In this document: positions 1 through 46,218 of the stretch, in pieces
Position numbering within the stretch: the stretch's first letter is position 1
How the letters are laid out: the number at the start of each line of letters is the position of its first letter
From: an uncultured virus (IMG/VR IMGVR_UViG_3300042387_001477)
Taxonomy: Duplodnaviria; Heunggongvirae; Uroviricota; Caudoviricetes
Reading direction: 5' to 3' (one strand)
Virus record (IMG/VR): IMGVR_UViG_3300042387_001477
Length of the DNA stretch: 64,000 nt
Notes under the pieces: model-generated
Databases searched by the model: none
Seen by the model: only the letters and a program-made list of their open reading frames with translations
Told to the model about the DNA's origin: nothing
Made by a program: the position numbers and the translations under genes

Positions 1-2628
1 CGGTGGAGTTGTGCCTCCTAATGTAGATGTCATTGGTTGAGATCTTGATTCTGTAATAGTTTTATTTGGCTCGCCTAGAGTTATTACATTACCACCAGCT
101 TTAGTTTGCTGTTTAGCTTGAGCCTGAACTTTTAGATTTTCTCTCTGAACTCTCTGTAGATTTTGGGAGTTTCCAGAAACTGCAGTTGTTATTTTAGGAG
201 TCTGCGGAGTGGTAACTTCTGGGACTGTAGTGGGTGCAGGACCATTTAACATCTGGAATAGTTTGCCCAACTGCTCAGCAGCTTTGGCTCCCATCTCAGC
301 AGTAAATGTTGGTGTAGATTCTGTGGAATCATCAGGAGAGTCTGTATTAGTTCTGGATGATGTTTTTCCACTTACAGATGGAATAGCTTTGCCAGAGGAC
401 CAACTAATTGGATCTATCTTTCCACCAATAGTTCCATTCCAAGAACTACCAATTTCCCAATGTAAATGTGGTCCACTACTTCTTCCTCCTCCATGTCGAT
501 GCCCACTTAATGCAACTTGTTCACCCGCTTTAATTTGTTCACCTTGCTTTTTAGAATAATCACTTACATGTCCAAACAGAGAATAAACTCCATTGGAACT
601 TTTTAATACCATGAAATTTCCCCACCCATCAGGATTCTTTCCGGTTTCTTTCACCATTCCATCGAAAGGTGCAAGTAGCGGAGTTCCTACTGGCATTGGA
701 ATATCTGTTCCGCCATGTCGTGAACTCATTCCTCTGCCTAACGATACACCAGAAGAATCTTCTGGTACAGGAGCCCATCCACCACCAAGCTTTAAAAACT
801 TTTTAGTTGAAACATTTGGACCACCACTACCAAATCTTGGATACATTCCATAGTTAATAGCATCTAATACTTTTGGACCACCCATTCCCTTGACAGCATT
901 TCGATTCAGGACATACTCTTGAGGTTCTAACAATGCAGGAATTTTATCTCCACCGCCTTGCCCAGGAACACCACCCTCTCCTTGAGTTGGATACGTGAAT
1001 ATGGAACTCGGCTTAGTAGCTGGAGGAGTGCTCCCTGAAGTGCCACTAGAAGGGGTTCCAGATGGGGCTGGTGGGGTGGAAGGGGGTGGAGGAGGCGTGG
1101 TTCCAGGTGTGGTGGCAGCTTTCTTTTGCTTGCTGATCAGAGCACCAAGAATGTTTCCAAGTAATCCTTTAACTGAAGTATCATTGGTTGGAGAAAACTC
1201 TTCTCCTTTCTGCTGACGTATATTGACTTCATTCTTCCCAAATAATTCAGCTACATTGCCAAGTCCTCCAGAAATTGCAGATGTAACACCACCTACAAAA
1301 TTACTCATTCCCGCAACCAATCCTGCAGGCAAACCAAAGCTAGATGCAATATTAGAAATCAGTGGAAGTATAAATTGTCCTACACCAGGAATTTTAGATA
1401 CTGCAGATGAAATTAATGCTACGATTCCTGCACCAACAATATTAAATGGTAAAGTCAATAGCTTCATGAATTTAGGAATCATCTTATTGGTAGATGCCTT
1501 GAAGCCATCAATACCAAATGATCCCAATTTATCCAGTGGAAGAATTGCTTCTGGTCCTGCCTCACCAACAATCGCTTCAGTTGGTTTAGTTACGATACCA
1601 CCCTTAGCTAACTTAGGAAGAGACTCTTGAGTTTTAGGTCCACTGAATAATGATTTAATAGAACCACCAATCTTGGCTCCAATATTCGCAGCAACATCCA
1701 TCCCTGGGAACAGAGTCTTCAGGATGTTCTTTCCAATATTAGAAAGTGATTCTTTTGCCTTTTCTCCTAGATCTTTTTTACCAGTATCAGATTCTGTTGA
1801 TGGAGTCTGTGGTTCTGCTGGTTTCTTTGCTTCTACTGCTTGATCAGCCTGACCTTCTAGTTCTTTCTGGCTACCAAATAGTCCTTGGGTTAAAACTGAT
1901 TCCAGGAAATTTGGAATCAAATCAGTCATGAATTTTACTGCTAATGTAATTGCATTTGGAATACTTGCAATAACAGAAGTAGCATTTTCAATGGTGGATA
2001 ATAGCCATTCTACTCCACCGCCCAGCCAACTAAAGCTGAAAAATTCTGCTACCTTTCCTATGAAATCAAAGACTCCATTGATTACTTTAGAAGTAACCGT
2101 AAGAGTTTTCATTAATACATCAACACCAAAGTTGGTGACTGCACTAATGAATTTAAATAACGTTATGAATAGATTGGCAAAGTCTTGAATTTTGCTTATG
2201 TTTTCTTTTTTGGATGCCCACTCAAGAACTTTATACCCAACGAAAAACTTCAGAAGATTTTTGAAGAATCCTCCGATCATTGATAGATCAGACTTTGCTT
2301 TTTCTAAAACAGGGTTCTTTTCTTTATCCTTTCCTAGTTTCTTTTTCTTTTCTTGCTCAGACTCTTCTTGCTTTAATTTATTTCTTTCGTCTTCTTTAGC
2401 AAAATGTAGAATCCTATCCCCTAAAAATTGATAATATCTTTTCTCTAATGCTAATAATCCACCAAGGATTTTTCTGACCTGGCCGAATTCTTCTACTTCT
2501 TTCTTTGTAATATTTGCGCCAGACACTCTCCCTCCAGTAATCGCAGATGGATTTACTGGAGATAGTCTTCTAGATCTGAGTGACTCAGAAAATGATCTAA
2601 ATGATGTCTGAGTTTGTCTGGCTGGCAT
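1..2628 (-). CDS. Tape-measure-like / baseplate hub protein with M23 peptidase domain (3' end runs off the window)
   Basis: Absent from the ORF track because there is no stop in the window. Read manually from ATG at 2628: MPARQTQTSFRSFSESL..., amphipathic helical region, 'PKLAKGGIVTKPTEAIVGEAGPEAILPL' motif, then M23 motifs HGGTD and GPHLHWEI at about 410-720. Confidence 0.75.
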   Translation of the reverse strand, partial: MPARQTQTSFRSFSESLRSRRLSPVNPSAITGGRVSGANITKKEVEEFGQVRKILGGLLALEKRYYQFLGDRILHFAKEDERNKLKQEESEQEKKKKLGKDKEKNPVLEKAKSDLSMIGGFFKNLLKFFVGYKVLEWASKKENISKIQDFANLFITLFKFISAVTNFGVDVLMKTLTVTSKVINGVFDFIGKVAEFFSFSWLGGGVEWLLSTIENATSVIASIPNAITLAVKFMTDLIPNFLESVLTQGLFGSQKELEGQADQAVEAKKPAEPQTPSTESDTGKKDLGEKAKESLSNIGKNILKTLFPGMDVAANIGAKIGGSIKSLFSGPKTQESLPKLAKGGIVTKPTEAIVGEAGPEAILPLDKLGSFGIDGFKASTNKMIPKFMKLLTLPFNIVGAGIVALISSAVSKIPGVGQFILPLISNIASSFGLPAGLVAGMSNFVGGVTSAISGGLGNVAELFGKNEVNIRQQKGEEFSPTNDTSVKGLLGNILGALISKQKKAATTPGTTPPPPPSTPPAPSGTPSSGTSGSTPPATKPSSIFTYPTQGEGGVPGQGGGDKIPALLEPQEYVLNRNAVKGMGGPKVLDAINYGMYPRFGSGGPNVSTKKFLKLGGGWAPVPEDSSGVSLGRGMSSRHGGTDIPMPVGTPLLAPFDGMVKETGKNPDGWGNFMVLKSSNGVYSLFGHVSDYSKKQGEQIKAGEQVALSGHRHGGGRSSGPHLHWEIGSSWNGTIGGKIDPISWSSGKAIPSVSGKTSSRTNTDSPDDSTESTPTFTAEMGAKAAEQLGKLFQMLNGPAPTTVPEVTTPQTPKITTAVSGNSQNLQRVQRENLKVQAQAKQQTKAGGNVITLGEPNKTITESRSQPMTSTLGGTTPP

Positions 2629-2632
2629 TTAA

Positions 2633-2821
2633 CTACAACGATGTTGTTGTTCTGTTTCTATTATTTTCCTCTTCAATATAGTCAACTAACATCTGAACAT
2701 AAATTTCTCTTTCCCATGGTAACATACATTCAATTTCGGAAAGAGACCACTTATGATGTTGAAGTAATATAAAATTAATTCTAAAGTAATTTTCTAGCGA
2801 TTCGTGCGCTAGGGCTATGCG
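2633..2821 (-). CDS. gp51-like baseplate hub assembly segment with no start codon of its own; probable -1 frameshift extension of gp26
   Basis: Manual translation RIALAHESLENYFRINFILLQHHKWSLSEIECMLPWEREIYVQMLVDYIEEENNRNRTTTSL*; resembles cyanophage gp51-like proteins (PWERxIY motif). Confidence 0.75.
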   Translation of the reverse strand, partial: RIALAHESLENYFRINFILLQHHKWSLSEIECMLPWEREIYVQMLVDYIEEENNRNRTTTSL

Positions 2822-3525
2822 AAAAAAGCTGCAAGACCTTCTAGTACCACATCACTTTCTACATTTGTTACTGGGTTAGTAACCTTAACTGTATGAGATA
2901 GCTTTGGCATAGTCTCAAAGAATTTTTGAATCAGTAAAAACTGTGCAGTATCTAAGCTATCAAGGAAATCGTTAATTTCTTTTTTAGAGAAACTCTTGGT
3001 TTCATAAACATCTTCCCCTTCTACAACTTGTTCAATGCAAGATGCAGCAATCTCAAATACGTCTTCAGTTTTTACACTAGCTGTAAAGTTTGACTTAACA
3101 AACATTTCCATACTAGGGTATTTCATTACAACAGAAATAGTATCATTCAATGAAATAATTCTAGAATGATCTTCAGACTTTTGAATCTGAATATCCTCAA
3201 CATTAATCTCTAGTGGAACTGTAGTTTCCCCATCATCTGGGCAAGTGATGTTGAGTTCGATTTGTTCTCCCACAGACTTAGCACGAATATTGAGGAACAA
3301 ATATTCGATATCAAATACTGCTAGGTCATCAACTTTAATTTTAGAGTTAATGCAATTTCTTAGGATGGTTTTCACTGCATTAATCATCTGAGATTCATCT
3401 TCAGATTCCATCGCCATCAGAAGAACTTTTTCTTCTTTTACTAGAAATGGTCTATATTTAATTAATTGATCAGTTGATGGTAAACGCAATTCATACGTCG
3501 GAGTTACAATTTTAGGTAAAGGCAT
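2815..3525 (-). CDS. gp26: Baseplate hub assembly protein gp26
   Basis: MPLPKIVTPTYELRLPS...YRPFLVKEEK, YLFLNIRAKSVGE, CPDD, FFETMPKL, C-terminal EGLAAFF. Confidence 0.9.
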   Translation of the reverse strand: MPLPKIVTPTYELRLPSTDQLIKYRPFLVKEEKVLLMAMESEDESQMINAVKTILRNCINSKIKVDDLAVFDIEYLFLNIRAKSVGEQIELNITCPDDGETTVPLEINVEDIQIQKSEDHSRIISLNDTISVVMKYPSMEMFVKSNFTASVKTEDVFEIAASCIEQVVEGEDVYETKSFSKKEINDFLDSLDTAQFLLIQKFFETMPKLSHTVKVTNPVTNVESDVVLEGLAAFFA

Positions 3526-3560
3526 AGTGTATACTATAACATAATCTCAATTTATTTAGG

Positions 3561-4394
3561 TTAGTTAGTTATCTGTAACCAGTTTGATGCTTCCAGAACA
3601 CTTCCACCTGCAGTTTGAGATGATGGCACTGCAAGTTCATATTCAAATGTTACCTGCACTCTAACTAACTGAGAAGATCCACTGGACAATGGAATTGAAG
3701 AGATAGTGGTAGGAAAACAATTCCTCAGCCTAACTGAATATGTGTAAAATGGTTTTCCAAATCCAGGAAGAAGTGGTCCATTATAATCTGGTATAATTTG
3801 TTTGTTATCATAGAAGTTACGTTGTGAATCAATATTAGTAACTCGTGGTCTAGTATTTTTCTTACTGCTTCTATGTCTTTCCAATTTAGCCACAACAATA
3901 TCTGTTACATAATCATCACGATATCTAGTTCTTCCAAGATCTATTTTAGTAGTAAAATTCAAATTAGTATTTGATACAACTCCTCCTGCCAATGAAACAC
4001 TACCGTAAATATAATTACCCCAGGCATCAAATATTCTTCTGATCTCAGCATCTGCATCTAAAATAAATGATATTGTGATTTCATTGTTTACTATACCGTA
4101 TGCATATTTCATTGATGGAGTATTGGTTATTCTATAATCTCCAGTTGAAATTGAGTATCCAGGAATAGAACATTCATCCGCATACAATCTTAAAAGTCCT
4201 TCCATAAAAGACGCACTGGTATTATTTGGATTACCAGACATCCCAAGATTAAATATATTTTTTAATAGTTGAGAGTTACTAGAATCATTACTAAGATAAA
4301 ATTGCACATCATAAAAGTTACTTAATGAAAAGCCATGCTTTTGTACAAAACCTTTGAACTCTTTAAAATTTGTAGGAGTAGTATTGATGCTCAT
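3561..4394 (-). CDS. Tail tube initiator / tube-fold protein (gp54/gp19-like)
   Basis: SIPG, ITISF, FDAW, 'NCFPTTISSIPLS...VQVTFEY' tube-fold motifs; position between gp26 and gp2. Confidence 0.7.
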   Translation of the reverse strand: MSINTTPTNFKEFKGFVQKHGFSLSNFYDVQFYLSNDSSNSQLLKNIFNLGMSGNPNNTSASFMEGLLRLYADECSIPGYSISTGDYRITNTPSMKYAYGIVNNEITISFILDADAEIRRIFDAWGNYIYGSVSLAGGVVSNTNLNFTTKIDLGRTRYRDDYVTDIVVAKLERHRSSKKNTRPRVTNIDSQRNFYDNKQIIPDYNGPLLPGFGKPFYTYSVRLRNCFPTTISSIPLSSGSSQLVRVQVTFEYELAVPSSQTAGGSVLEASNWLQITN

Positions 4395-20538: not shown

Positions 20539-20649
20539 AATTTGAAAATGATTAAGTACAGATTTTATTTATATTGTTAGGAACCATAACGTGGTTCGGT
20601 CCCTTCCCCAATATTATAGGGTAAAAGGTGGGGGCTGTCAACCCCCTTT

Positions 20650-20785
20650 GCAGGCTCGCCACTTGCCCTTTGACTGGAGGCAAGAAACCAGGCGGGAGTA
20701 AGCACTCCTCATCCGCACCAGTCGGCATATTTACTGTCCAATCCGACGAGGACTATTTGGGTCATGTTGACTCCACCAGGGTAAT
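20650..20785 (-). ncRNA. wcaG-like structured RNA (UGGYG-containing)
   Basis: Stems GTCGG/CCGAC, GCGG..GGAG/CTCC.CGC and CTTGCC/GGCAAG, with TGGTG or TGGCG directly after the first and third; upstream of the porin/hli operon. Family name from recall. Confidence 0.65.
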
Positions 20786-22078: not shown

Positions 22079-22341
22079 ATATCTTCAGGATTTTCTAGAT
22101 CAACTGGAAATAAACAAGGATGACATTCTTCATCAATCAAATAAAATGAAGTACGATATAAATCTTCTGGAGCATATTCCTGATTATTTGATGCATCTAT
22201 TTGAATGTAAGGGTCATCCTGCATGATTTGAGGAATCTCTTCAAAAGTAAAAGGTACATTGTTGATGAAATACATTTCCACAATTTCATTGTTGTAGTAA
22301 CAATAGTTTGAGGAAATTTTGTATTTCATAACTGTATCCAC
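22069..22341 (-). CDS. Conserved hypothetical protein overlapping the tRNA-Thr 5' end
   Basis: VEMYFINNVPFTF, YLIDEECHP; last codons (ATG CCT GAG TAG) overlap the tRNA by 10 nt. Confidence 0.65.
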   Translation of the reverse strand: MDTVMKYKISSNYCYYNNEIVEMYFINNVPFTFEEIPQIMQDDPYIQIDASNNQEYAPEDLYRTSFYLIDEECHPCLFPVDLENPEDMPE

Positions 22342-22363
22342 CGATACTGATATTTATCGGTAA

Positions 22364-22481
22364 CTCCCCCGATAGGACTTGAACCTATAACCCATCGGTT
22401 AAGGAAAAAACTGGAATCGAACCAGAACTAAAGGAACCTTCTTTTCCACAGCCGATTGCTCTGCCATTGAGCTACAGGGGA
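22364..22481 (-). tRNA. tRNA-Asn(GUU) interrupted in the anticodon by a 46-nt tRNA-like insert
   Basis: TCCCCTG/CGGGGGA acceptor, TAGCTCAATGGCAGAGC D-arm, ATCGG/CCGAT anticodon stem, GGTTCAAGTCC T-arm; removing 22402-22447 gives a 72-nt tRNA with loop CTGTTAA. Confidence 0.9.
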
Positions 22482-22518
22482 ATAAATAGTTGGTATTAAT
22501 TTAAAAAGTTATACCAAC

Positions 22519-22848
22519 ATGAATAAAAAAGAAACTAGAACTTATGCTGATAGAAAAGCAAAAAATCCTAACTGGGCTAAAAAAATGACAGAAAGAGTAT
22601 CTGCAACTAGAAGAAAAAATGTATCTTTAATTAAAGAAGAAGCTGGAGGAAAATGCTGTATGTGTGGATACAACAAATGCACGGCAGCACTAGAGTTTCA
22701 TCATGTAGACCCAGATGCTAAAGAAGGTGGAATTATTGGTTCCACCGCATCTTTAGCAAAGCAAAGAGAGGAAGCAAAAAAATGCATTCTTGTCTGTGCT
22801 AATTGTCATCGTGAAATTCACTCTGACTTATCTATGTATCATAGATAA
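22519..22848 (+). CDS. HNH endonuclease (free-standing, homing-type)
   Basis: CCMCGYNKC..ALEFHHVDP...KCILVCANCHREIH; TAAATA at 22483-22488; antisense to the tRNA cluster. Confidence 0.9.
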   Translation: MNKKETRTYADRKAKNPNWAKKMTERVSATRRKNVSLIKEEAGGKCCMCGYNKCTAALEFHHVDPDAKEGGIIGSTASLAKQREEAKKCILVCANCHREIHSDLSMYHR

Positions 22849-22851
22849 AAA

Positions 22852-23074
22852 TTGTGGTAGGTGGGAATAACTTTGCCTATGTTATCCCTCTTTACTTCAT
22901 CCAGCCACAGAATACTAGACCAGCGAGAGGTTTTGGCACCTACGATTTTTAAGGGCAAGAATGTCCACCTACGATAAAATCTACGATGTGGCCGAGGGGA
23001 TCCTTTGTTTAATACAACGTTCCTTGTTGCACCCTTTACTACAGCATTCTAGTTTATCAGTCTAGGGCTCTTAG
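22852..23074 (-). ncRNA. Candidate highly structured non-coding RNA of unknown family
   Basis: No ORF in the supplied track; many complementary blocks (see findings); transcribed between a tRNA-like element and tRNA-Asn. Confidence 0.5.
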
Positions 23075-23148
23075 TACCTCTGGCTGGGAATCGAACCCAG
23101 TTTCCAAGTGCATTGTCTGCCTGTCCTTACCAATAGACTAACAGAGGA
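23075..23148 (-). ncRNA. tRNA-like RNA with a non-canonical anticodon arm
   Basis: CCTCTG/CAGAGG acceptor, D-arm with TGGTA, perfect CTGGG-TTCGATT-CCCAG T-arm; anticodon arm reduced to GCA-GACAA-TGC. Confidence 0.7.
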
Positions 23149-23555: not shown

Positions 23556-23604
23556 AGTGACCCCTCTGTTTGAGCATCGTCGATAGGCTTGAGGGGTGTT
23601 GATT

Positions 23605-46089: not shown

Positions 46090-46188
46090 TACGTTCATTC
46101 GCTATTCGCAAATAGCGAACGGAAGTAAGCCGACTCGGAACGGATCGTTCATCCTCATAGAGGACGCAAAAGCCGACTGAAGGAACGC
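46090..46188 (+). promoter_or_regulatory. Tandem glutamine riboswitch (glnA-motif-type aptamers)
   Basis: Two units CGTTCA-[hairpin]-CG(G/C)AA..AGCCGACT..GGAACG with a CGTT/AACG closing stem, upstream of a DUF4278-like ORF. Confidence 0.8.
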
Positions 46189-46218
46189 TCTTTAGCCTAA
46201 AAATTAAGGAGAAACCTA

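Follow-up and report, generated by a model that had tools for sequence, protein, structure and literature searches.

How could a tRNA gene continue to supply its tRNA when the anticodon loop is interrupted by an element that is itself shaped like part of a tRNA? The question is raised by a split tRNA-Asn(GUU) gene in a stretch of 64,000 nucleotides (nt), here called the window, from an uncultured virus of the Caudoviricetes (IMG/VR record IMGVR_UViG_3300042387_001477). A 46-nt insert in the anticodon loop of this gene has the form of an acceptor stem joined to a T-arm. It is best explained as a member of a family of tRNA-shaped mini-introns in phage anticodon loops, of which the published introns of the Lak megaphages would be longer members. 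The reading that we prefer, with a probability of roughly 0.42, is that this mini-intron travels along with an HNH endonuclease cassette, and that RNase P, a tRNA 3'-end nuclease and a phage RNA ligase together remove it. It is built on the observed anatomy of the gene, the conservation of the insert and an allele that lacks it, on the joint mobility of insert and HNH gene, and on the presence and enrichment of ligase genes.

Anatomy of the split tRNA-Asn gene

The window belongs to a complete virus record of 172 kilobases (kb) with terminal repeats, similar to freshwater and marine Synechococcus myoviruses. The split gene is the sole tRNA-Asn among the 12 tRNA calls made by ARAGORN in intron mode in this genome (Table 1). 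Its acceptor stem reads TCCCCTG/CGGGGGA with the discriminator G, and CCA is not encoded in the 3' exon. Joining the exons brings CUGU and UAA together as CUGUUAA, the normal 7-nt loop of tRNA-Asn(GUU). The insert has T as its last base and the 3' exon has T as its first, so that a junction one base further left would give the same product; the insertion site is thus 35/36, or 34/35 under the alternative junction. The gene is read as Asn because four viral contigs join the same exons as an ordinary tRNA-Asn and because of the discriminator, which is G in the window's and in the other split genes. In contigs from sequencing runs, intact tRNA-Asn genes of other organisms align up to position 22448 and then read TAACC.

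Table 1. Positions of the split tRNA-Asn gene, its parts and the adjoining HNH gene in the window
Feature	Position	Strand	Basis or remarks
Split tRNA-Asn(GUU) gene, 118 nt	22364..22481	-	Sequence, Rfam tRNA model, ARAGORN intron mode, exon match to intact alleles
5' exon, 34 nt, ends CTGT	22448..22481	-	Acceptor 5' strand, D-arm, anticodon-stem 5' strand ATCGG, loop CUGU (32-35)
Mini-tRNA insert, 46 nt	22402..22447	-	Interrupts the tRNA after U35
3' exon, 38 nt, starts TAA	22364..22401	-	Loop UAA (36-38), stem CCGAT, variable loop, T-arm, acceptor 3' strand, discriminator G
Closing helix GGAAAAG/TTTTTCC	22447-22441 with 22409-22403	-	6 Watson-Crick pairs and one G-U
Connector, 14 nt	22440-22427	-	Between 5' strand of closing helix and T-arm
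T-arm TCTGG-TTCGATT-CCAGT	22426-22410	-	4 pairs and U.U; loop TTCGATT
Trailing base T	22402	-	Single nucleotide after closing helix
Free-standing HNH endonuclease gene, 109 amino acids	22519..22848	+	PHROG HNH families; divergent from the tRNA, 37 nt from its 5' end
Mobile block: split tRNA-Asn, spacer and HNH gene	22360..22850	.	Mosaic divergence against L113

An earlier note on this DNA, made from the sequence alone, had described a 46-nt insert in the anticodon loop of a tRNA-Asn, with a closing helix of 7 base pairs (bp), a T-arm and one trailing base. The sequence reads as claimed and the coordinates were confirmed. The closing helix and the T-stem adjoin each other on the 3' strand, as they do in a tRNA, with 11 of their 7 + 5 positions paired, and the T-loop fits the consensus TTCRANY. 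Two details of that description had to be revised. The T-stem has four standard pairs and a U.U, not five pairs, and the proposed AAGG/CCTT hairpin would have a loop of only 2 nt and could therefore form at most 3 bp; the predicted fold leaves this region open.

The minimum-free-energy fold of the whole gene retains all four tRNA arms together with the mini-helix. The fold energy of the insert is unremarkable (z = -0.25; 75 of 200 shuffles fold equally well) and was for this reason dropped as evidence in favour of motif and comparative tests. When the insert was shuffled 1,000,000 times, 5361 of the products had a terminal helix of 6 bp or more, 1820 had a T-arm, 10 had both and 1 had the two in abutting position. 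The shuffle test is post hoc, having been designed after the feature had been seen, and replication is therefore the stronger argument.

Genes of this kind escape the usual searches. With default settings ARAGORN called nine tRNAs in the window and Rfam at gathering thresholds gave ten matches, none of them at the split tRNA-Asn. In intron mode ARAGORN recovers the gene, naming it tRNA-His(gtg) i(38,46) with the junction placed one base later. The Rfam tRNA model with permissive filters matches 22365-22481 with 37.8 bits (cut-off 29) and a 49-nt block in the anticodon loop.

Two known classes of tRNA intron do not accommodate the insert. No intron family in Rfam matched at gathering thresholds, nor at E values up to 10 over 22340-22500. 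A self-splicing group I or group II intron was rejected on this ground and because 46 nt fall far short of a ribozyme core of about 200 nt or more. A bulge-helix-bulge intron was rejected because the junction lies at 35/36 (or 34/35) and not at 37/38, and because the 3-nt bulges are absent in the predicted fold, where a single continuous helix has both junctions at its base.

The 3' trailer of the split tRNA at 22342-22363 (TTACCGAT...) is similar to the start of the 3' exon (TAACCGAT, 22395-22401), and a hairpin ACCGATA...TATCGGT is possible in it. The likeness of trailer and exon may be due to chance or to a shared context of the 3' cut.

Alleles with and without the insert

Seven viral contigs contain the exact 33-base 5' half of the gene, three of them with the identical insert and four without it. 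In the four insert-free alleles (L100, L102, L103 and L105) the exons are letter-for-letter identical to those of the window and joined as CTGT-TAA; they lie in a different neighbourhood, with tRNA-Val directly next. Since the same exons occur in both forms, the insert is an element that a working gene may have or lack. The claim that the host tRNA is undegraded holds as well, in that the exons equal those of the insert-free allele and fold as clean cloverleaves in every lineage.

The insert is identical in L002/L099, L018/L101 and L034/L104, and in L113 and L114 there are no differences from the window across the 46 nt although the flanks differ. Of the contigs in the window's lineage, one shows no difference over 3.6 kb and the rest are mosaics. 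Because the identical 46 nt recur in three other viral contigs, one of them with diverged flanks, the insert is not an assembly artefact. These comparisons support a real, conserved mini-tRNA-like element and not a product of decay.

Related inserts in other phages

Related inserts were sought with several approaches. Stretches in which 30-60 nt of any sequence split the same anticodon stem-loop numbered 97, and seven of them had tRNA flanks; these seven belong to type A, that of the window, in three contigs, to type B in three and to type C in one. A wider pattern, CTGTGGRARAAG...GTTCRANTC, which does not match type A, gave 112 stretches (83 distinct), nearly all of them a conserved protein-coding motif; the real inserts among them were only of types B, C and B2. 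A long-intron run of ARAGORN over 430 loci returned 124 intron calls and 75 distinct genes with a T-arm in the 'intron'. Most of these calls are fusions of two neighbouring tRNAs, and the cases kept were those checked by eye.

The result is a set of seven short types in unrelated phage tRNA-Asn and tRNA-Lys genes, namely the window's own and six more. Type A is the 46-nt insert in tRNA-Asn described above. Type B (L328) measures 49 nt, type C (L337, from a 340-kb phage) 52 nt, and type B2 (L360, from a 203-kb phage) 50 nt with a different anticodon stem. Types D and D2 (L181 and L187), of 44 nt, lie in a tRNA-Lys-like gene and consist of a perfect 7-bp helix and a 5-bp T-stem followed by A or G and then CCA. 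The seventh type, a 46-nt insert of type B design in tRNA-Asn, is carried by the cultured Sinorhizobium phages phiM12, phiM7 and phiM19, in which it is 100% identical; the gene is annotated there as a pseudo 'tRNA-OTHER' or as 'tRNA-Thr'. In phiM12 a second pseudo 'tRNA-OTHER' of 91 nt (L436:3832-3922, record 96296-96386) has a normal T-arm and acceptor stem and an odd middle.

The T-stem is kept by compensation. When the six short types from viral contigs are aligned, the T-stem columns pair in 93% of cells and both partners have changed in four of the five pairs; with the partner columns slid, pairing falls to 50% or less. Pairing of this kind would prove little if the inserts had come from different tRNAs. 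This objection is met because types B and B2 are homologous along their length and yet compensated, the T-stem differing by C-G to U-A and by U.U to A-U. The earlier note had proposed a search for anticodon-loop inserts combined with a covariation test, and on both counts the outcome, six further types and a T-stem paired through two-sided changes, agrees with what it had expected.

Longer and more complete forms occur too. A 133-kb contig (L167) has three interrupted tRNAs, at 942-1098, 1881-2199 and 3141-3309, with an HNH homologue between them. The inserts measure 81 nt in a Pro-like gene, 244 nt in a Lys-like gene and 96 nt in an Asn-like gene, and the 244-nt insert may be a group I intron. 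In a 200-kb phage (G009; L240:2587-2744) the anticodon loop holds a near-complete nested tRNA-like element with D-arm, T-arm, a 7-bp acceptor stem, G and CCA. The ends of this insert would leave CUU and AUAA, that is, the anticodon UAU.

Unusually long tRNA-Ile(UAU) genes of 89-95 nt were noticed in addition (L110:1897-1991, L155:1935-2023, L166:1058-1152 and L188:4821-4910). What lengthens them is apparently an additional arm with the loop AGATTA, placed between anticodon arm and T-arm. Several phage tRNA clusters contain such genes beside HNH homologues.

Position of the junctions relative to the minihelix

RNase P and RNase Z accept minihelices of acceptor stem and T-arm, and leave a 3'-OH and a 5'-phosphate respectively. 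The earlier note placed the 5' junction at the bond that RNase P would cut. In all seven short types the junction indeed lies between a U (-1) and the first base of the helix, a G (+1), and thus at the predicted bond. For RNase Z the expected register, a cut after the discriminator, restores the loop in the window's type only, where a 1-nt tail leaves UAA. The tails are 4 nt long in type B (AGAT), B2 (AGTC), C (AAGG), D (ACCA or GCCA) and the phiM12 type (AGAG), and here the register fails. They consist of A or G and three further bases, which are CCA in type D only. Of the conserved stems and register that homologous inserts were expected to share, the T-stem and the 5' register are therefore borne out and the 3' register is not.

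The HNH gene and the mobile block

The HNH gene matches PHROG HNH families with E = 4e-23 to 2e-6; in Pfam the HNH domain scores 17.4 bits, under the cut-off of 21.4 bits. Invariant columns among four homologues are C46, C49, H61, H62, C93, N95, C96 and H97. Compared with L113, the block of split tRNA-Asn, spacer and HNH gene has seven differences over 485 nt, none in the tRNA or the spacer, and the flanking 40-nt bins have 2 to 18. This pattern of sequence divergence marks a cassette that was copied, not long ago, from one diverged genome to another.

Homologues that are 46-53% identical adjoin the split tRNA-Asn of types B and C, and in types A, B, C and D, as at the tRNA-Asn of L167, a gene of the family is no more than about 400 nt away. 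In phiM12 an HNH gene of the same family overlaps the 3' end of the split tRNA gene. No HNH gene was found within 1.5 kb of type B2, and no HNH homologue in an insert-free fragment (G005).

In the viral collection at least 527 relatives of the family were found, and the neighbourhoods were read at the best 80 loci. A tRNA-Asn lies within 150 nt in 56 of these 80, in three orientations and nearly always uninterrupted. When lineages with a split tRNA-Asn are compared with intact loci having the same ATCGG/CCGAT arm, the HNH gene is near in 5/6 against 4/114 (p = 4e-6), and HNH adjacency is the strongest genomic correlate of the insert.

The ATCGG/CCGAT arm was found in none of the 29 distinct intact neighbours of the 80 HNH loci. 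At three other loci the HNH gene lies beside an intact tRNA-Asn with the ATCGG arm, which weakens the idea that the insert shields an ATCGG/CCGAT target from the HNH enzyme. Relatives of the D-type HNH gene gave five loci with the HNH gene between intact tRNA-Lys genes and no new insert variants. In the phage Lak-A2 an HNH homologue of the same family follows an intact tRNA-Asn (L437:2800-3700). The Lak-A2 HNH gene is open only with TAG as a sense codon, in agreement with the alternative code reported for Lak phages.

RNA ligases and RNA data

Ligases of the Rnl1 and Rnl2 types join a 3'-OH to a 5'-phosphate without end healing. The suggestion that an RNA ligase might be encoded elsewhere in the genome proved right, as two ATP-dependent ligases are encoded by the window phage (G000) outside the window. 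One is an Rnl1-type protein of 409 amino acids (PF09511, E = 5e-28), which scores 26.9 bits against the C-terminal domain of T4 Rnl1, just under the 27-bit cut-off. The other, of 354 amino acids, is of the Rnl2/Rnl5 type (PF09414 with an N-terminal OB domain). PF09511 and PF09414 are both present also in the records of type B (G003, a 25% fragment) and type C (G004). RtcB (PF01139) was absent from all five records searched.

The Rnl1-type gene follows the short tRNA-Asn inserts. It was found in all four searched lineages of this kind (G000, G003, G004 and G008) against one of 13 controls, these being large records with an intact tRNA-Asn (p = 0.002). Among records at least 90% complete the numbers are 3/4 against 0/6 (p = 0.03). 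The phages phiM12, phiM7 and phiM19 are among the matches to Rnl1 homologues.

In the window phage, in the region C1 about 1869-3589 (L315:1255-2975), the Rnl1 gene overlaps the start of a gene for a kinase-only protein of 166 amino acids that resembles polynucleotide kinase (AAA_33, E = 5e-21; PHROG 'polynucleotide kinase', E = 5e-17); a phosphatase domain was not found in this protein. A conserved cassette of Rnl1 and kinase was considered and rejected because the neighbours of Rnl1 differ among lineages, with the kinase in G000, DUF488 in G004 and a calcineurin-like phosphoesterase preceding Rnl1 in G003.

A contig from an RNA library spans 22475-22950 with no mismatches. It includes the HNH gene and ends after the first 7 nt of the tRNA. 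An apparent 46-nt 'skip' in run X2, probably a DNA library, was discarded as a candidate splice product; its foreign flanks identify it as the intact tRNA-Asn of another organism. Mixed communities cannot settle the matter of splicing, because a spliced read has the sequence of the insert-free allele.

Other RNA elements in the window

ARAGORN also reports a 72-nt 'tRNA-His(atg)' at 23076-23147 on the minus strand; its anticodon stem is poor, U33 is lacking, and Rfam gives no match for it at the gathering threshold. The same call lies between tRNA-Asn and tRNA-Val in L137 and L141, and again in L112, L114 and L117. The element may be a degenerate tRNA or a tRNA-like RNA. Further Rfam matches above the gathering score are a wcaG RNA at 20648-20755 (minus strand, 68.9 bits), an abiF RNA at 23560-23596 (minus strand, 48.6 bits) directly adjoining tRNA-Gly, and a glutamine riboswitch aptamer at 46144-46191 (plus strand, 40.1 bits).

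Proposed mechanism and alternative explanations

At the level of DNA, the insert travels as a cassette with the gene of a free-standing HNH homing endonuclease that is habitually found beside tRNA-Asn. Every step at the level of RNA, cutting and rejoining alike, is one that we infer. The precursor would fold as a normal tRNA bearing a second minihelix, of acceptor stem and T-arm, on its anticodon loop. RNase P of the host would cut 5' of the first base of the minihelix and leave CUGU with a 3'-OH, and a tRNA 3'-end endonuclease would cut behind the minihelix and leave a 5'-phosphate on UAA. In the window phage the register of this second cut, after the single trailing base, would suit RNase Z. 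The body of the tRNA would keep the two halves together until an ATP-dependent ligase of the phage, of the Rnl1 or of the Rnl2/Rnl5 type, seals the nick to give CU-GUU-AA.

Several observations weigh against this mechanism. In five of the seven short types, with their 4-nt tails, the loop would keep three surplus bases if the cut fell after position 73. Since a cut behind the first base leaves these extras, the cut in such types must fall four bases out, at the position of a mature CCA end. The helix has mismatches at its outermost pairs in types B, B2, C and the phiM12 type, which leaves 4-5 Watson-Crick pairs. In the longer forms, those of L167 and of the Lak phages, a 5' hairpin and a linker precede the mini-tRNA and go beyond what a single RNase P cut would remove. 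The conservation of the insert among close relatives of the window can be explained by recent transfer instead of selection. The ligase statistics come from few lineages, some of them fragments, with relatedness ignored, and over all records with nested inserts, including two fragments and G009, Rnl1 is present in 4/7 against 1/13 (p = 0.03). G009 itself combines the nested tRNA-like insert with a PF09414 ligase and lacks Rnl1. Finally, in four sequencing runs no contig was found over the tRNA at high identity. Because of the 4-nt tails, the mismatched helix ends and the long forms with hairpin and linker, the route by RNase P and RNase Z is incomplete for the family; as the junctions read, it fits the window phage exactly and cannot be the whole story elsewhere.

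Three other explanations were weighed, and they are taken here in descending order of probability. The first, which we regard as unlikely, is that the insert is selfish DNA that is not removed at the RNA level. It would be a passenger or a shield of the HNH cassette in a tRNA-Asn that is dead or dispensable, and its T-arm-like sequence would be a DNA signal or a leftover of recombination between tRNA genes. Such an origin is favoured by the strong link of the split tRNA-Asn to the HNH family (5/6 against 4/114), by the recent transfer of tRNA and HNH gene as one block and by the RefSeq label of the phiM12 copy as a pseudogene. It is favoured also by SegB, an enzyme of T4 described in PMC2330249 as cutting the tRNA-Asn gene of rival phages and recognising the DNA motif GGTTCRANTCC; the insert in the window has GGTTCGATTCC. 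However, a DNA signal needs neither a complementary 5' strand that closes the helix, nor an encoded CCA as in type D and L240, nor compensatory changes in the T-stem. The exons are perfect cloverleaves in seven diverged lineages, and the tRNA-Asn is the only one of its genome. A shield, moreover, is not required, since the HNH gene lies mostly beside an intact tRNA-Asn (56/80 within 150 nt), and type B2 retains the insert without an HNH gene within 1.5 kb.

The second explanation, to which we give a lower place still, is that the tRNA is spliced by another route. The mini-tRNA would recruit RNase P or merely position the RNA, and another nuclease, of host or phage, would make the second cut, leaving a 5'-OH or cutting four bases past the helix, so that end healing would precede ligation. 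The 4-nt tails in five of the seven short types and, in the long forms, the hairpin and linker that precede the mini-tRNA point in this direction. So do the genes near Rnl1, a polynucleotide-kinase-like gene overlapped by it in G000 and a phosphoesterase gene preceding it in G003. In addition, base -1 can pair with the first base of the tail (U-A or U.G) in types B, B2, C, D, D2 and the phiM12 type, which is an unusual context for RNase P. On the other hand, no candidate for the nuclease was identified, the neighbours of Rnl1 vary among lineages, and the window's own type suits plain RNase P and RNase Z exactly.

The third and least probable explanation is that the RNA is cut without rejoining, or not cut at all, and acts without decoding as a decoy or regulator, either as mini-tRNA and halves or as a two-headed RNA; the CCA encoded on the nested element in type D and L240, as if that element were itself the product, would suit it, but joining the loop halves always gives exactly 7 nt and the cognate anticodon, a working allele has the identical exons and the enrichment of ligase genes would be left unexplained.

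Relation to known systems

Bacterial tRNA introns are textbook group I ribozymes, and protein-only splicing of tRNA is regarded as an archaeal and eukaryotic trait. The separate parts of the proposed mini-intron pathway are nevertheless familiar. The mascRNA of MALAT1 and the t-elements of plant mitochondria are tRNA-like elements released by RNase P and RNase Z. As in the window, a mimic of acceptor stem and T-arm within a longer RNA is there the handle for end-processing enzymes, as proposed here for the insert. These systems differ in being eukaryotic or organellar and in marking the ends of transcripts, whose flanks stay unjoined, whereas the flanks of the phage insert are tRNA halves that would need ligation.

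In T4, polynucleotide kinase and Rnl1 repair a break in the anticodon loop of tRNA after damage by an anticodon nuclease. The likeness lies in an Rnl1-type ligase sealing a nick in the anticodon loop, and the window phage has Rnl1 with an adjoining kinase-like gene. The break in T4 is damage from host defence and needs healing, whereas the breaks proposed here would be programmed by the gene and have ligatable ends.

The pairing of an interrupted gene with a free-standing homing endonuclease has a precedent in the T4-like cyanophage S-PM2, where F-CphI and the group I intron of psbA show collaborative homing (Zeng, Bonocora and Shub 2009, as cited in PMC6083498). There, too, the endonuclease gene adjoins the interrupted gene, and joint movement is possible. 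The psbA intron is a self-splicing group I ribozyme, for which the insert in the window is far too small. Unlike F-CphI with its intron, most relatives of the window's HNH gene sit beside an uninterrupted tRNA-Asn, and cutting of such a site by the HNH protein is only putative. SegB is comparable as a homing endonuclease whose gene is embedded in a tRNA cluster and inherited with the neighbouring tRNA genes, although it belongs to the GIY-YIG family and not to HNH, and no tRNA insert is involved.

The closest parallel is in the Lak megaphages. Devoto et al. (2019; PMC6784885) describe 'enigmatic' introns in their tRNA genes, one of which 'may encode a tRNA'. These introns are identical across samples, absent from some genomes and mostly without an Rfam match. 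The earlier note knew of no description of the arrangement seen in the window. That statement no longer stands, since the Lak introns had been published and Table S6 of the same paper, from which their structure was read by eye, shows the same design of T-arm and closing helix. The likeness extends to position and distribution: a phage tRNA is interrupted in the anticodon loop by an insert that is conserved, present in some genomes and absent from others. The introns for Tyr, Phe, Gly and Thr end in a T-arm (TTCGAAT, TTCGATT or TTCGTTT), a strand that pairs upstream and 1-3 further bases. In length the Lak introns of Table S6 range from 23 to 141 nt. The four named here measure 79-114 nt and have a 5' hairpin and an A/T linker, whereas the window's insert is a bare 46-nt minihelix. 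Lak-A2 shares with the window phage an HNH gene of the same family beside tRNA-Asn; the hosts differ, being Prevotella for Lak and cyanobacteria for the window phage.

In the passages of Devoto et al. (2019; PMC6784885) consulted, no mechanism is given and no link to homing endonucleases or RNA ligases is made. Passages of PMC4621102 and the other literature searched do not mention the split tRNA of phiM12, and in the literature searched for a mechanism no paper proposed that RNase P and RNase Z remove a tRNA intron. The insert in the window is thus a minimal version of published, unexplained phage tRNA introns, whose mechanism would be new if shown. What is new here is the two-sided change in the T-stem, the linkage to the HNH gene within a mobile block and the enrichment of Rnl1.

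Significance

We tentatively suggest, at somewhat less than even odds, that the insert represents a third kind of phage tRNA intron, distinct from self-splicing and bulge-helix-bulge introns: a minimal tRNA mimic that borrows the nucleases of tRNA end processing and leaves the rejoining to a phage ligase. A member of the family is present in cultured Sinorhizobium phages, which opens the proposal to bench tests. Irrespective of mechanism, default finders overlook such genes and annotators label them pseudogenes or misname them, as in phiM12, phiM7 and phiM19. Since the split genes are missed or mislabelled, the tRNA inventories of phages are undercounted.

If the proposed mechanism is true, a new splicing pathway would have been assembled wholly from housekeeping parts, and the 'enigmatic' introns of the Lak phages would be explained. 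The Rnl1 and Rnl2 'repair' ligases of phages would gain a routine role in splicing beyond the undoing of host damage. The split tRNA-Asn would also show how a homing endonuclease cassette can occupy, harmlessly, an essential RNA gene that must not be broken.

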